DNA of 24,000 nt from Endozoicomonas acroporae (GTDB lineage: Bacteria; Pseudomonadota; Gammaproteobacteria; Pseudomonadales; Endozoicomonadaceae), in assembly GCF_002864045.1 (NCBI RefSeq), contig NZ_PJPV01000077.1, forward strand, positions 37,287-61,286, read 5' to 3'. Below the pieces are notes generated by a model, which was not told the DNA's origin, did no database searches, and was given only the letters and a program-made list of their open reading frames with translations. Made by a program: the position numbers and the translations under genes. Below are positions 19,875 through 24,000 of the stretch, one piece after another; position 1 is the first letter of the stretch; the number at the start of each line of letters is the position of its first letter.

Positions 19875-20399
19875 GATCAAAGAACAAGTTGCAAAATGCG
19901 GCCTGCTCGGGTGAACATCCTCCGGAGTTTCCAGAGACAACGACAGTTGTTTAACAGATGCCATCCGAAACCACTTCCCCGATGATGACTCTCCGAGATT
20001 TGTTCAGGCCTTCAGTGACAAGAGGTCACCTACTATGCCTTATGCTGTCTTCTGCACTGCGATCACACCAGATTGCTCCCATGTCAGTTAATCCCGCAAC
20101 ACAGTACAGACCTCCCGGGGTAAGACACTTAACTTTCCTCGCGTAGACGCCCAATTTATAAAACGTATCCCGCTTGCAGATGGAGGGCTTAATGGTCACG
20201 GGCCCACTGGCCCAGAATACGTCACACCTCATACTGGATTCTTGTTCATCGCTCCGCGATTTTGCGTTGAGCTTCCTTCAGACCGGGTCGCGTAGACCCT
20301 GCCTTGCAACAACGCCCTTGCCCTTTCGCTAACCTTCGGCTCTGCGAAACCGGGTAAGAGGACTTTCACCTCTCTAGTTAAGTGCCATGCTCGGCAAAC
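19875..20399 (-). mobile_element. Group II intron 5' fragment (ribozyme domains upstream of the ORF only); second copy of the 21137-22666 intron
   Basis: It is collinear, with scattered substitutions, with 22025-22666. Examples are CCAGAGACAACGACAGTTGTTTAACAGATGCCATCCGAAA at 19930 and 22101, and GGTAAGACACTTAACTTTCCTCGCGTAGACGCCCAATTTATAAAACGTATCCCG in both. The 5' end abuts repeat copy B. It lacks a 110-nt segment present in the other copy. Homology fades at the point where the RT ORF would start. Confidence 0.7.
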
Positions 20400-20443
20400 A
20401 CGCCAAATACAGAGGCACCGAAGGCGTCCCCTGGAATTTATTG
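20400..20443. repeat. Structured repeat copy B (occupied on its left by the intron fragment)
   Basis: The sequence is ACGCCAAATACAGAGGCACCGAAGGCGTCCCCTGGAATTTATTG. It has the same ends as copies A and C. The centre is different but still pairs (GGCACC/GGCGTCC). Confidence 0.6.
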
Positions 20444-20523
20444 TTATGCATACTTACTAATTTGTTAGTGAATTTAATGTGCAATTTGCAATATCATTTT
20501 TTATTTCTCATGGGTTTGATAAG

Positions 20524-21099
20524 ATGAATATCTCATTAGGAGATTTAAACTCAATTCGCGAATTCCTGCCGGTAAATTTTGCAAGCGAATCAAAACCAAC
20601 AGAAAGGGAATTAAATTTCACCTATTCTACAGGATTGGATGAAGGGATAGAAGCAATAAACATTCTTGAACGATCTTGTGAGAAAAAAGATGTAGTGTCT
20701 ATTTTTTTTAGAGATAAAAATGCACTAGAACCTTTCAATAGTTCTGACTGTATGTTGTCACTTGATTATAATGAAACCGATGATTACATAATACGTCATT
20801 ATGATGATGAACATAATGATTCAATGCACTGGCCTGAAAACCCTCTCTCATTTCATTGCCATATTAAAAAACAACGAGATGAGGTTGATACTTTAGTAAA
20901 AGGAATATTTCAGAGGCACTCGAAATCTGGAGAAACTCATTACAAACAATATTTATTCTCTAAAAAGAATTTCAAAGAAAACCATCATCAAAATGGAATC
21001 GTATTCAAAAATGGCAGTTCGTCACACAATCTTTCTTGCAAGTCAATTTATGAGGCAGTGGAAGTTGATAAATCATTATTTAGGAATATTCAAGATTGA
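20524..21099 (+). CDS. Hypothetical ~191-aa protein, AT-rich orphan
   Basis: Uninterrupted ORF in a strongly AT-rich segment (the track ORF starts at GTG 20479; the first ATG is at 20524). It is Asn/Asp/Lys/His-rich with no recognisable motif. The RBS is weak. Confidence 0.45.
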   Translation: MNISLGDLNSIREFLPVNFASESKPTERELNFTYSTGLDEGIEAINILERSCEKKDVVSIFFRDKNALEPFNSSDCMLSLDYNETDDYIIRHYDDEHNDSMHWPENPLSFHCHIKKQRDEVDTLVKGIFQRHSKSGETHYKQYLFSKKNFKENHHQNGIVFKNGSSSHNLSCKSIYEAVEVDKSLFRNIQD

Positions 21100-21136
21100 A
21101 TTCTAATAAGTAAATCCAAGAGAGTGAAAAATAAAG

Positions 21137-22022
21137 GTAGCCTTTGCTGCCCCATTGCTTCAGGATATAACACCGTAATCGTCGTCGAATCCATTTGTCC
21201 AAATCTCGCAGAGGACTCAATATTTCGGCAATATCGAAATACGCTTTGACCACCACGGACGGTGGGAAGCCTGGTTTTGCAGGAGCAAAAACCAGCCCTA
21301 CCAAGCAGGGATTTTCTAAGCTCTGCAATAATCCGGATGATTGAATGGCCTCTCGTTCGACGGCTCAGTTGTTTTACGGTCTTTTTCAGTTTGGTAAATG
21401 CTTTATCACTGACTTTCAGCACTATGTTTGAAAGGACAGGCGACAAAGGGCCACCTTGTTGTACACCTTTCACACTGGCTTGCTTTGTTCCATTAATGCA
21501 AACACCCGCTTTCAGATAACGGTTGATTAACCAAAGCGGCGTGGCATCCTTATGGTGAGCTTTGAGTTGTGTCATCAATAAATCATGATTGACATGATCA
21601 AAGAATGCCTCAAGGTCGCAATCCACCACCCAGCTGTATCCGTCTCGTATGACTGATTGTGCGTGACGTATGGCTCGATGTGCATTCCGGTGAGGGCGAA
21701 AACCGTAACTGTTATTATGGAATTTGCTGTCCCACTCTTCCTGCATAATCTGGGCAATAGCCTGCTGTATCAGTCGGTCAAGTACGGTAGGAATACCCAG
21801 CTTGCGTTTGCGGCCATCCGGTTTTGGGATTTCCATCCGCAGCACGGGCTTGGGTTGGCAGGCTCCTTCTGCCAGTTGCTGCCGAATCTTTGGCCAGTGT
21901 TGTTTCAGGAAGTCTGGAAGTTCATCAACGGTCATGCCATCGATACCTGCGGCTCCTTTATTACGTTGAACCTGTTTCAGTGCACGTACCAGATTATTCC
22001 TGTCCAGTACCCGCACCATCAA
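21137..22022 (-). pseudogene. Group II intron reverse transcriptase/maturase, defective
   Basis: RT blocks 0-4 are present (NKGAAGIDGMTV, RKLGIPTVLDRLIQQAI, YGFRPHRNAHRAI, DLEAFFDHVNHDLLM, QGGPLSPVLSNIVL). The sequence then passes directly to KVSDKAFTKLKKTVKQLSRRTRGHS...AELRKSLLG, so the YADD block is deleted in frame. The maturase motif continues in another frame (KAYFDIAEILSPLRDLDKWIRRRLRCYILKQWG) after a 49-nt insertion. The C-terminus is lost. Confidence 0.85.
21248..21296 (-). repeat. 49-nt hairpin insertion element, copy 1 (inside the RT maturase domain)
   Basis: In the gene sense it reads GCTGGTTTTTGCTCCTGCAAAACCAGGCTTCCCACCGTCCGTGGTGGTC. Deleting it joins ...CTGCTTGGTAGG to AAAGCGTATTTC..., giving LLGRKAYFDIAE... 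in frame. It matches the copy at 23800-23848 at 45 of 49 positions. Confidence 0.65.
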
Positions 22023-22666
22023 AGATGAACAAAAGATGCTTTTTTACAGTGAAGAGCGGTTCAATCGGGTCTCCCGTTTCCGGTTCACCCTCTGGTGTAT
22101 CCAGAGACAACGACAGTTGTTTAACAGATGCCATCCGAAATCACTTCCCCGATGATTACTTTCCAAGATTTGTTCTGGCCTTCAGTGGCCAGAGACCACC
22201 TACGCGGTAACTGCTCCTGCGTTACTCTAGCTCCTGCATCCATGCAGTCGTATGTCGTCTGCTGATAGGGCTATGGATAGCCCGTATGCCGAAAATGCAG
22301 GAGCAATTTTCGGTCTTCTGCACTGCGATCACAGCGGATTGCTCCGTTGTCAGTTCATCCATTAACACAGTGCAGTCCTCCCGAGGTAAGACACTTAACT
22401 TTCCTCGCGTAGACGCCCAATTTATAAAACGTATCCCGATTGCAGATGGAGGGCTTAATGGTCACGTGCCCACTGGCCCCGAATACGTCACACCTCATAT
22501 TGGGTTTCTGTTCGTCGCCCCGCGATTTTGCGTTGGGTTACCTTCAGACCGGGTCGCGTAGACCCTGCCTCACGACAACGCCCTTGCCCTTTCGCTAACC
22601 TTCGGCTCTGCGAATACCTGGTAAGAGGACTTTCACTTCTCGAGTTAAGTGCCATGCTCGGCACAC

Positions 22667-22716
22667 ACGCCAAATTCAGCGGCACGAGCGGAGCGAGTGT
22701 CCGCTGGAATTTTTTG
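22667..22716. repeat. Structured repeat copy C (5' exon of two opposed group II introns)
   Basis: The sequence is ACGCCAAATTCAGCGGCACGAGCGGAGCGAGTGTCCGCTGGAATTTTTTG. AAATT+CAGCGG pairs with CCGCTG+(G)+AATTT, leaving one unpaired G, and there is an inner CAC/GTG pair. It is flanked directly by intron 5' ends at 22666 (minus) and 22717 (plus). Confidence 0.75.
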
Positions 22717-23370
22717 GTACGCCCGGCATGGGCATGAACTGATGGGGTGGAAGTCCTCTGTGGGAGAACCTACATCTGACTGGCGGTAAAGACGCCTGCT
22801 GATGACAACCACTAGCTTAAGGCAAGTGCAGTCCCGTGAGGGGCTGTGCGGAGGCAGTCTGACTGCAAAAGTGCGAGCCGACGTATAGAAATCGCATATA
22901 AGGCTTAGTCTCTGGGCGAGTGAGCCAAGGATCACAAAGCCCTATGGTTCGTGAGACACGGTAAATGCGGCGGTTGTGCACTGAAAGTTCATGTCCTTAT
23001 CCGGGGAGATCTGTTCAACATGCGATTGGTAATTCCCAGTTCTCAGCCACTGGTTACAACAGGCTCGGCGAACAGTGACTCATCATCCTGTTCGAGCAAA
23101 CCCGATGGCAACCAATAGCGCCAGCAGAGGCAACTCCGCATGGTGATTGGGCAGAAGTCAGCAGAGGCCATAGTAGTTGTACGACAAAAGTCATTAATGG
23201 ACGGGAAGTCGTCAGCGAAGGGCCGAACATCGATGACAAAGAGGAGACTGATTCCCTCAGGGCGATGCAGCCGTCCGGCGACTCACCGTACCTGGCGACA
23301 GAATCTTTAACCAGCTTTGAACCATGATCTACTAAATTGCGTACTTGAACCGGCTAATCTGGCAAGTGCA

Positions 23371-23420
23371 TGCGACTGCACGGATGCAGGAGGTAGTGGG
23401 GAGCAGGAGCCAGAGCCGGG
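23371..23420 (+). repeat. ~50-nt (47 or 50 nt) insertion in the RT N-terminus carrying the GCAGGAGC motif
   Basis: The sequence is TGCGACTGCACGGATGCAGGAGGTAGTGGGGAGCAGGAGCCAGAGCCGGG. It separates NLASA from KQVKSNKGAPGIDG, which are adjacent in the other RT (NLVRALKQVQRNKGAAGIDG). It causes the frame change and contains the hairpin CTGCA-CGGA-TGCAG. Confidence 0.4.
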
Positions 23421-23799
23421 AAACAGGTCAAAAGCAACAAGGGTGCTCCGGGTATCGATGGAGTCACCATTGAAGCTTATCCAGACTTTGCCAAACAGCA
23501 TTGGTCTTCAGTGCGTCAAGCCTTATTGGACGGAACCTACCAACCATCACCCGTGCGTCGGCATGTTATAGAAAAGCCGGACGGTGGTGAGCGTTTGCTG
23601 GGAATCCCTACCGTGATGGATAGGGTCATACAGCAGGCCATTTTGCAGGTGCTGACCCCTGTCTTTGATCCGGGTTTCTCTCCAAACAGCTTCGGCTACC
23701 GACCGGGACGGTCAGCACACGACGGAGTCCGTCAGGTTAAGCAGTTGATCAACAGGGGGCTGCATTACGCCGTTGACGTTGATCTGAGTAAATTCTTTG

Positions 23800-23848
23800 G
23801 CTGGTTTTTGCTCCTGCAAAACCAGACTTCCCACCTTCCATGGCGGTC
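23800..23848 (+). repeat. 49-nt hairpin insertion element, copy 2 (inside RT block 3)
   Basis: The sequence is GCTGGTTTTTGCTCCTGCAAAACCAGACTTCCCACCTTCCATGGCGGTC. Deleting it turns DLSKFF-G...(stop) into DLSKFFDTVNHDVLM, the conserved group II RT block, and links the two reading frames exactly. Confidence 0.7.
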
Positions 23849-24000
23849 ATACGGTCAATCACGACGTTTTGATGTCGAGGGTCTCCCGTAAGATCCACGA
23901 CAAACGCCTTCTGAAGCTGATTGGTCGCTACCTGCGCTCCGGTGTCATGATTGATGGCAACGTCTACCCTACCAGGGTAGGCATGCCACAGGGTGGGCCT

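Follow-up and report, generated by a model that had tools for sequence, protein, structure and literature searches.

Tiny two-hairpin units are known from fungal mitochondria, where double-hairpin elements and GC clusters occur in introns, intergenic DNA and genes, are nested, and have no known mover. The small dispersed repeats of Nostoc, tens of nucleotides long, are reportedly (in the 2008 account by Elhai) also nested and likewise without a known mover. The IS608 transposase TnpA reads an extrahelical T in a hairpin. Tagged REP families, and REPs located within genes, have also been described (PMC3733652). Here we analysed a window of 24,000 nucleotides from Endozoicomonas acroporae, in which a first-pass annotation had reported one 49-nt hairpin element interrupting the reverse transcriptase (RT) genes of two group II introns at different positions, and compared this locus with such systems.

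Both copies were recovered with the coordinates, strands and sequences originally given (Table 1); a degenerate 49-mer matches the window at these two places only, and shuffled sequences are expected to give no match. The copies are identical at 45 of 49 positions, the four differences falling at positions 27, 37, 41 and 45. Both lie in sense orientation to their host RT gene, and both are inserted between a G and an A. The stem-loop folds as had been described, and a second hairpin follows it; the predicted fold of copy 1 comprises the two canonical hairpins (−13 kcal/mol, z −4.2). Under a covariance model of the family, copy 1 scores 64.4 bits and copy 2 67.8 bits (E 6e-18). Three more related units in the same intron cluster had been overlooked, all within intron copies. 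Specifically, member b has the same loops as copies 1 and 2 with different stems (63.6 bits), member (4) scores 41.8 bits, and member c, in which hairpin 1 is degenerate, scores 12.4 bits (E 0.05).

Table 1 Double-hairpin units and group II introns of the window (a slash marks the insertion point)
Feature	Position	Strand	Location and remarks
Copy 1, double-hairpin unit, 49 nt	21248..21296	-	Intron A X/maturase domain, between codons AGG/AAA (LLGR/KAYF)
Copy 2, double-hairpin unit, 49 nt	23800..23848	+	Intron B RT block 3, splits codon G/AT (DLSKFF/DTVNHD)
Member b, 49 nt	22266..22314	-	Non-coding ribozyme part of intron A; ACCGAAAATTGCTCCTGCATTTTCGG CATAC GGGCTATCCATAGCCC TA
Member (4), 47 nt	22204..22250	+	Antisense to intron A, 15 nt from member b
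Member c, 47 nt	23372..23418	-	Antisense, N-terminal coding region of intron B RT (..ANLASA/WKQVK)
Group II intron A	21130..22668	-	Hosts copy 1, b and (4)
Group II intron B	22717..24000	+	Hosts copy 2 and c; Rfam D1-D4 matches; extends beyond the window, continued in L055
Intron C, 5' fragment, A-type	19915..20401	-	Rfam match and alignment to intron A

Above threshold, an Rfam scan of the region returned only group II intron domains. The RT of intron A lacks blocks 5-7 and its 3' end is truncated, while that of intron B is dead: member c and the 49-mer interrupt it, as do two inserts of 13 nt that lie more downstream. The X domain without copy 1 aligns gap-free to the intact RT P0003, and the copy 2 site is empty in the intact introns L041 and L042, which read ttctttg/atac. 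The window's own intron A reads FFDH at the equivalent position. The comparison with uninterrupted copies that the annotation had called for thus gave empty RT block 3 (RT3) sites and intact RT homologues without the insert. Neither a target duplication nor terminal inverted repeats are present at copy 1 or copy 2, and the borders of copy 2, ttg/GCT...GTC/ata, contain no repeat, including the 3-nt kind. These results bear on the reading that the shared 49 nt are native coding sequence, a chance similarity, or the product of gene conversion between homologous RT positions. RT homologues by the thousand, among them proteins with 90-99% identity, run for 420 aa without interruption, so the insert is not native; no chance matches are expected; and the two sites, in RT block 3 and the X domain, are non-homologous with unrelated flanks, which refutes conversion. 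No point in favour of this reading was found, and its probability is close to nil.

In the wider family, units are 47-50 nt long and form two hairpins; the bulged T is invariant, loop 1 is GC-TCCT-GC, loop 2 is TCC, and the stems covary. On the TCCT strand, the unit begins with one purine, followed by an 8-bp stem with the bulged T and a GC clamp around the TCCT loop. After a linker of 5 nt comes a second stem of 5-6 bp, which encloses a TCC(N) loop, and two final nucleotides complete the unit. Read on the opposite strand, a bulged REP-like hairpin is preceded by a GTATG, GTAG or GAAGY head and this, in turn, by a small hairpin. Of the 56 unique members, 26 have GTATG as the linker; 47-nt subfamilies have GTAG or GAGGTA, and the two window copies GAAGC or GAAGT. 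Hairpin 1 (25 nt, 10 bp plus the bulged T) agrees with the definition of the REP palindrome as a 20-40-nt imperfect stem-loop. The annotation's view that the element fits no described class was too strong, since the opposite strand resembles a tagged REP hairpin preceded by a second small hairpin. The unit is organised as two unlike hairpins in tandem and not as a REPIN-type inverted REP pair. Among 24 diverse members, base changes occur on both sides at 13 of 16 pairs, and 89% of cells are paired against 70% in shuffles, a value reached by none of 500 shuffles. Helix 1 is 97.5% paired, with covariation at 8 of 10 pairs. Little or no variation is seen in the bulged T, the GCTC.TGC core and the TCC loop. 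The covariance model yields 73 units in 335 kb.

In Endozoicomonas, all members found are inside introns. A covariance scan of about 46 kb of non-intron Endozoicomonas DNA with filters off gave no match, nor did a default-filter scan of the non-intron flanks at nine additional loci. In other Gammaproteobacteria, family members occur in intergenic clusters, a 290-bp MITE-like unit, two DDE transposase genes and a cobW-type GTPase gene; the 25-nt hairpin 1 is identical inside the cobW-type gene and both transposase genes, and is identical across bacterial orders. Clusters, tandem units and both orientations were seen in Methylococcales-type and other loci. Copies of the exact hairpin-1 type are few, at 1-10 per genome. 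Neither the region nor the 49-mer was matched in E. coli genomes and plasmids. The core sequence was not found in the literature, and no published link between Endozoicomonas introns and such inserts was found. The units represent an apparently undescribed small mobile repeat family that is present in several groups of Gammaproteobacteria. With regard to the options initially raised for the 49-mer, a MITE/REP-like mobile unit is favoured and an RNA-level intervening sequence is unsupported. The third, a parasite of group II introns, holds for the location in Endozoicomonas only; an intron-specific parasite was rejected given the members in cobW, DDE transposases, the MITE-like unit and intergenic DNA.

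The strong covariation combined with invariant loops could also indicate a functional structured RNA module, whose UCCU/UCC loops (or the GGA loops of the opposite strand) would bind a protein or Shine-Dalgarno-like sequences, and which mobile elements would carry passively. Consistent with this, in the 290-bp MITE-like unit the element stands at about +1 of a transcript from a conserved promoter, TTGACGGC-N17-TAGAAT, some copies lie directly upstream of terminators, and there is a weak likeness to the Rfam Bacillaceae-1 RNA (24.8 bits, E 0.017). That score, however, is under the family threshold of 35, the units lie in both orientations relative to host transcription, and the stem cells contain G.T (29) and A.C (25) equally often. 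Location within open reading frames makes no regulatory sense, and the exact insertion polymorphisms described below show a unit that is itself mobile. We thus regard such a module as unlikely; both orientations and the G.T/A.C parity speak for an element at the DNA level rather than the RNA level.

The evidence for mobility comes from pairs of filled and empty sites that differ by exactly 47-49 nt. The RT3 site is paired with L041 and L042. Members b and (4) of intron A are paired with intron C, which serves as the empty-site reference within the window; the site of b is also empty in intron B (about 23152), and (4), likewise missing from intron B, occurs in L004, in L006 and in L042, an intact intron. 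Member c is the sole length difference between introns B and B2, which are about 2.05 kb each, 98.6% identical and arranged in tandem in the source genome. The interrupted cobW copies L014 and L007 are paired with L054. Additionally, one transposase family was struck at three different sites (L012 versus L021), and nested inserts were found within copies of the MITE-like unit. At every pair, target duplication and inverted termini are absent; empty sites have exactly rejoined flanks. The element ends are RCTGG... and ...GGTC or ...AATA. Across 22 insertion contexts, position -1 is G or C in 20 and position +1 is A in 17, while nucleotides -4 to -1 vary (TTTG, TAGG, TCCG, ATTC, GAAG), with no fixed 4-5-nt target.

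Some of these insertions recur at the same place. The same insert occupies the same G/AT of RT3 in two intron lineages about 24% diverged (dS 1.3-1.6); the inserts differ at 2 of 49 positions, and the flanks are lineage-specific from -11 and +9, with no co-transfer of flanking sequence. Member b stands at homologous positions in introns with RTs that share only 50% identity, and two base pairs of its hairpin 2 differ there by compensatory changes. Among near-identical intron copies, b, c and (4) are present or absent in a reticulate pattern. The RT3 recurrence and this reticulation are not predicted by near-random insertion and need an extra assumption, namely site preference, precise excision or short-patch transfer. 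Together with the confinement of all Endozoicomonas members to introns, they would suit a site-specific homing hairpin, a dedicated parasite of Endozoicomonas introns in which each subfamily targets a particular group II intron sequence (the RT3 G/AT site and a cagaag/tcagcag site among them) and is copied from filled to empty sites. We consider this rather unlikely. One subfamily with identical hairpin 1 is present in unrelated targets (RT3, X domain, cobW, transposases, intergenic DNA) that have only S/A in common; inspection by eye of linker and stems against the target flanks gave no consistent rule of complementarity or identity; and seven empty targets, when folded, had no common structure. 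Moreover, in the cobW case the flanks travel together with the insert, as in ordinary homologous recombination, and gene conversion suffices for spread among copies 98-99% identical within one lineage.

Next, we considered the consequences for the interrupted genes. The reading frame is broken in all four coding insertions of 49 nt measured, which for the two window copies follows from 49 = 3 × 16 + 1, and insert-bearing copies give truncated open reading frames ending in ..FFGWFLLLQNQ. In seven of eight insert-bearing copies examined, other lesions break the ORF as well, among them 13-nt inserts at YADD, a nonsense codon and deletions; of two interrupted cobW copies, one has a further frameshift. 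Against this stand a dN/dS of 0.02-0.1 around the insert between insert-bearing copies, an insert far better conserved than adjacent synonymous sites, and three sense frames of the unit that are all open. These features could mean a tolerated intervening sequence, with a gene product kept functional by RNA removal, ribosome bypass or a +1 slip on the T5 run; the coding gap of T4 gene 60, at 50 nt, is close to the unit in length. However, the low dN/dS is accounted for by the existence of intact copies 97.5-99% identical to filled ones; the intact reference for lineage 2 is the RT protein P0001 (99% identical to that lineage), for which no contig was located. Programmed bypass was rejected because the borders of copy 2 offer no matched take-off and landing codons and seven of the eight copies carry other lesions. 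The slip on TTTTT would work in theory with the frames used, but at the cost of the FFD motif, whose conserved D would give way to 17 residues within RT block 3, and other members without the T run, or antisense 47-mers, are equally frame-breaking. A tolerated intervening sequence is therefore highly improbable. Removal at the RNA level or bypass of the 49 nt would be marked by the junction peptide DLSKFFDTVNHD.

The damaged introns have nevertheless spread. Introns B and B2, which have diverged at 1.4% of positions, both carry the 49-mer and two lesions of 13 nt, and this tandem pair shows that RT-dead, insert-bearing copies have multiplied. One Endozoicomonas chromosome carries three insert-bearing copies, the same defective intron lineage occurs in at least four genomes, and RT-dead copies still gain or lose family members, which also counts against the RNA-level intervening sequence. 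Since RT-dead introns kept multiplying, the 49-mer has spread with them, as a passenger, between loci and between genomes. We further considered precise, reversible intervening elements, acting either as a site-homing, exactly excising switch on RT and transposase genes or through RNA-level removal or bypass that keeps the genes functional. We rate this as very unlikely; if true, bacteria would have in these units an equivalent of the mitochondrial byp and double-hairpin elements, and the units would be either parasites or a host tool for controlling other parasites.

Taken together, the data favour, with moderate confidence, a REP-like family of non-autonomous mobile DNA elements, 47-50 nt long and defined by structure, to which the 49-mer belongs and which hitch-hikes in introns. 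The unit inserts precisely, leaving neither target duplication nor inverted termini, with a preference for the junction of G/C and A, and any DNA that tolerates damage, such as intergenic DNA and the genes of other selfish elements, serves as a landing site. In the genome of the window, two insertions have disrupted the RT frames of two different group II introns. We infer that the element moves as folded single-stranded DNA. It is probably moved by an enzyme whose gene lies elsewhere and which would recognise the invariant bulge and loops, modelled on an HUH/Y1 transposase of the RAYT or IS200 kind; invariant bulge and loops kept with freely covarying stems across several gammaproteobacterial orders point to a putative conserved recognition protein. 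A rough tblastn with approximate IS200/RAYT queries against the loci around the units (about 4-10 kb per unit) gave no match. Intact RT copies probably mobilise the dead introns in trans, and in Endozoicomonas the unit may have lost its own mobility, persisting only in introns and spreading by retrohoming and recombination.

Several other candidates were rejected. Integron attC sites have RYYYAAC/GTTRRRY cores, which are missing at the hairpin ends, and the core motifs of IS91/Helitron-type ends are absent. A classical MITE was set aside for want of terminal inverted repeats and target-site duplication, and a CsrA-type role of the opposite-strand GGA loop because of the two orientations and the lack of strand asymmetry in the stems.

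At 47-50 nt, these units would rank among the smallest bacterial elements with demonstrable exact insertion polymorphisms. They offer a concrete route to RT loss, by which group II introns become non-autonomous, and they create three layers of nesting, with a hairpin unit in an intron, IS or MITE-like unit that lies in turn in a chromosome. Recurrence at the same nucleotide in diverged introns poses the question of site preference, precise excision or short-patch transfer. For annotation, the covariance model accounts for recurrent 'frameshifted' RT, transposase and cobW pseudogenes.

With integrons, the family shares only a G/W crossover-like target, which resembles their secondary sites. The best Rfam match, RF01690 (Bacillaceae-1 RNA), also has two hairpins with UCCU-type terminal loops, but it comes from Firmicutes, the gathering threshold was missed by the matching locus L029, and a relaxed Rfam scan of a window copy gave only noise and no RF01690 match. 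The fungal mitochondrial elements and the Nostoc repeats are organellar or cyanobacterial and have no sequence relation to the family, so that the likeness is one of form only. Like IS200/IS605 and their miniature derivatives (PATEs), the family has structure-defined ends without target duplication or inverted termini, its exact filled/empty pairs are consistent with precise insertion and excision, and its bulged T is similar to the T read by IS608 TnpA. In contrast to them, it has no conserved 4-5-nt 5' target, only the S/A preference; a single nucleotide of the element lies 5' of hairpin 1 and therefore leaves no room for an IS200/IS605-type left guide sequence; and the unit is far smaller than PATEs.

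The GTAG-tagged REP/REPIN-RAYT systems (PMC2817692; PMC3116915; PMC3733652) differ from the family in that its unit is two unlike hairpins of 47-50 nt in all, where theirs is a single REP or an inverted pair, and in that its head is mostly GTAT (GAAGY in the window copies) where the canonical one is GTAG. Hairpin 1 is kept unchanged between orders, in contrast to the usual lineage specificity of REPs; there seem to be few copies; those within genes break the frame, where REPs add residues; and no RAYT has so far been linked to the family. On the other hand, both have a short, imperfect palindrome that is bulged and has a loop closed by GC, and the 4-5-nt sequence directly 5' of the main hairpin on one strand (GTATG or GTAG in many members of the family) may correspond to the REP head. 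Intergenic clusters and both orientations of the units are seen in several Gammaproteobacteria, as with REPs. In both, subfamilies are distinguished by complementary stem changes, target duplication and inverted termini are absent, and copies are occasionally intragenic.

The first-pass annotation had described one 49-nt hairpin element at two places in the window, and this observation is confirmed in full and proves wider in scope than first stated. The degenerate 49-mer given there matches at just two places, copies 1 and 2, where shuffled sequence gives an expectation of none, and the copies differ at positions 27, 37, 41, and 45. Within the final 4 kb of the window, Rfam identifies three group II intron ribozyme segments (introns A, B, and C). 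The reverse transcriptase (RT) gene of intron B hosts copy 2, which splits the GAT codon of DLSKFF/DTVNHD in RT block 3 (the RT3 site), while copy 1 lies between LLGR and KAYF in the X domain of the intron A RT gene. As had been claimed, precise removal of the 49 nt brings back frame and colinearity. Specifically, the intact introns at loci L041 and L042 read ttctttg/atac at the RT3 point, intron A is insert-free there (FFDH), and its X domain minus 49 nt aligns without gaps to the intact RT P0003. Neither target duplication nor inverted termini were found at the two copies.

The RT of intron A lacks blocks 5–7 and the 3' end of this intron is also missing; block 4 (QGGPLSPVLSNIVL) joins the thumb/X region directly, blocks 5–7 with YADD being deleted, and the truncation point adjoins a low-GC ORF that matches nothing in Pfam. 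Introns A and B stand head to head on either side of one terminator-like hairpin (cagcggcacgagcggagcgagtgtccgctg followed by T6), which fits class-C-type introns, which target stem-loops. In the source genome, a second intron copy, B2, lies directly downstream of B, inserted at the exact 3' end of B (cccttacccgat/gtacgccc).

Positions of units, introns, and neighboring features (L055, continuation of the intron B locus past the window end; other L numbers, fetched homologous or unit-bearing loci)
Feature	Source	Position	Strand	Remark
Copy 1	window	21248-21296	minus	R1 match
Copy 2	window	23800-23848	plus	R1 match
Member b	window	22266-22314	minus	R1, 63.6 bits
Member (4)	window	22203-22250	plus	R1, 41.8 bits
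Member c	window	23373-23415	minus	R1, weak
Intron A	window	22668 down to ~21130	minus	Rfam
Intron A RT gene	window	21090-22022	minus	
Intron B	window	22717 to past window end	plus	Rfam
Intron C, 5' fragment	window	20401 to ~19915	minus	Rfam
Low-GC ORF	window	20479-21099		
Terminator-like hairpin	window; L055	22668-22717; 9160-9207		
13-nt mini-hairpins	L055	10570-10582, 10699-10711, 12577-12589, 12706-12718		also L006, L033, L038, L004
Mobile/defence region	L055	13268-19809		
Third B-type intron, 5' end	L055	18010		
Member cluster	L054	200-3300		
62-nt unit	L004	6768-6829		
290-bp MITE-like unit	L029	2195-1915	minus	example; loci L010, L011, L018, L020, L025, L029, L035, L039, L040, L043, L048

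Copies 1 and 2 belong to one family of units. When one genome per species was searched for hairpin 1, the bulged-T stem, with any loop allowed, 40 loci emerged, among which L001-L003, L009, L022, L030, and L032 have different loop sequences and unrelated contexts. Most of the remainder carry CTGGTTTTTGCTCCTGCAAAACCAG or a variant with one base changed in the bulge or loop, and in most CTGGTTTTTGCTCCTGCAAAACCAG-type loci hairpin 2 comes next, its stem varying by locus and its TCC loop kept. Aligned intron copies reveal extra units with the same build and different stems, and a simple structural scan finds four units of this build in the window. Alignment A1, which covers 24 diverse members, shows an invariant GC-TC.T-GC core and TCC second loop; at least 90% of members keep the bulged T and the other base of the first loop, and 13 of 16 pairs have changed on both sides. 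Pairing in A1 reaches 89% of cells, compared with 70% in shuffles and 27–43% for slid partners, a value matched by none of 500 shuffles. The covariance model R1, built from A1 and applied to the complete window with filters switched off, recovers both reported copies together with members b, (4), and c, with no match of E < 0.5 in the other 21 kb; in total it yields 73 units across 48 sources.

The units are mobile and their insertion is exact. At many sites filled and empty versions can be paired, and their length difference is exactly one unit. The RT3 site is filled in eight intron copies and empty in L041 and L042; members b and (4) are present in intron A and absent from C, a paralogue 93% identical to A that also lies in the window; and member c alone accounts for the difference in length between the tandem introns B and B2 (~2.05 kb, 98.6% identical). 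A cobW-type GTPase gene is split between G and AT in L014 and L007 (QIALSD/49 nt/VLVANKMDL) and intact in L054, one DDE (rve) transposase family holds units at three separate points, where L012 and L021 each supply the empty site for the other, and some copies of a 290-bp MITE-like unit hold extra nested members. No duplication was seen at any of these filled/empty sites. The G and A flanks first reported for two copies take a more general form across the family: among 22 independent contexts, the preceding base is G/C in 20 and the following base A in 17.

The 290-bp MITE-like unit has terminal inverted repeats AACCTAGAAACCGCAGTTGA and an internal promoter-like TTGACGGC-N17-TAGAAT with the double hairpin at ~+1, and its copies adjoin unrelated genes. 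In L054, five members of three subfamilies cluster among merA-, merC-, and cobW-like genes, the cobW gene being the intact orthologue of the split ones. In L004, a 13-nt insert nested in hairpin 1 of member b makes a 62-nt unit.

The interrupted genes are very probably broken and not rescued by recoding. With lengths of 47 or 49 nt, all the measured coding inserts shift the frame. The repaired RT, used as query, returned thousands of uninterrupted homologues, including 420-aa proteins, 90–99% identical, from Endozoicomonas genomes, and of the interrupted form the protein database has nothing but truncated ORFs that end in FFGWFLLLQNQ... Among the eight RT3-bearing copies examined, member c is additionally present in the window copy, L006, L015, and L038; two 13-nt inserts, one at YADD, in L006, L033, B, and B2; a nonsense codon in L038; and many deletions in L004 and L031, so far as the readable part of L026 goes leaving it alone in having no second lesion. 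One of two interrupted cobW copies has an additional frameshift. Removal or recoding of the 49 nt at the RNA level is highly improbable: the unit borders have no take-off/landing codon pair, slipping by +1 on the T5 run would put 17 residues in place of the D of FFD, and the T run is missing in other members, or the members lie antisense.

The 13-nt mini-hairpins make up a further class of tiny inserts (TCTTTAGTAAGAG, TCTTTATGATGAG, TGTTTATAAAGAG; arms CTCTT...AAGAG), common to B, B2, and copies in other genomes, and break the RT frame at three of four sites in intron copies. A more distant RT, P0145 (JGI metagenome), has a different small in-frame insert, FFDR[RPTLRVGA]RHDVLM, one residue past the RT3 point.

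B2 has the 49-mer and both 13-nt lesions in common with B, differs from it at 1.4% of positions, and lacks c. Thus an RT-dead, insert-bearing intron was copied again, and c was gained or lost after that copying. The same defective lineage is present in strains SESOKO1, G21_0, and ALB091, and one Endozoicomonas chromosome holds three filled copies. No unit was detected outside introns in ~46 kb of Endozoicomonas DNA (filters off) or in the flanks of nine other Endozoicomonas loci (default filters); in other Gammaproteobacteria, units form intergenic clusters and tandems in both orientations. The most likely scenario, which we favor with moderate confidence, is that a miniature hairpin DNA element disrupted the two intron RT genes and now rides on introns mobilised in trans. 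Just past the window end come a Fic gene, a retron with its RT and a Retron_Ec48-type effector, the 5' end of a third B-type intron, and an IS110-family transposase, so that the neighborhood resembles a mobile and defence island.

Two intron lineages were compared, the window copy, L006, and L033 against L015, L026, and L038 (lineage 2). The flanks of the RT3 insert show dS of 1.3–1.6 and dN/dS of 0.06–0.09 between lineages, and the insert itself differs at 2 of 49 positions, lineage-specific differences starting at −11 and +9. L015 and L038, within one lineage, show 16 synonymous differences, 1 non-synonymous, and an identical insert. Such low flank dN/dS would be surprising were the insert ancestral. 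Because intact copies are very close to filled ones (L041 97.5% identical to L006 around the site; the intact protein P0001 99% identical to lineage 2), purifying selection most likely acted on intact introns, the filled copies being recent splits from them.

The RT3 unit occupies the same nucleotide in both lineages, members b, c, and (4) likewise recur, and b is common even to intron families with just 50% identity between their RTs. Such recurrence could reflect a site preference of the element, precise excision yielding intact copies, or short heteroduplex transfer, in which mismatch repair resets the flanks but is unable to take out a loop of 49 nt. Over the 60 nt upstream of the cobW insert, five of six informative sites place the two filled alleles together and the empty one apart, and farther upstream the three groupings count 11, 21, and 17. 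Here the flanks move along with the insert, which fits ordinary homologous recombination of the insertion allele. A dedicated homing behaviour of the unit, with same-site recurrence as its product, seems unlikely; active homing or excision, if true, would make the finding matter far more.

An RNA-module function is improbable: the stems contain G.T cells (29) as often as A.C cells (25), evidence against selection acting on a single RNA strand. Among known systems, the unit does not pass as a classical MITE, as a bypass element (no take-off/landing pair at the borders), as an attC site, or as an IS200/IS605 derivative, for which the target would be fixed, and the Rfam Bacillaceae-1 family gives 24.8 bits, below its threshold of 35. 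Its likeness to a known kind shows on the opposite strand, where a small hairpin, a 5-nt head, and a bulged hairpin whose AGGA loop is closed by GC follow one another. This order comes close to that of the tagged REPs in the catalogue of Di Nocera et al., who also describe REPs inside genes and GTAG REPs linked to RAYT transposases (PMC3733652). As the head sequence, GTATG occurs in 26 of 56 unique members; the 47-nt subfamilies have GTAG, and the window copies GAAGC/GAAGT. Because this head is atypical, the two-hairpin build is not a REPIN, and the copy number looks low, the unit is not taken as a proven REP family member; in mechanism, we infer, it is REP-like.
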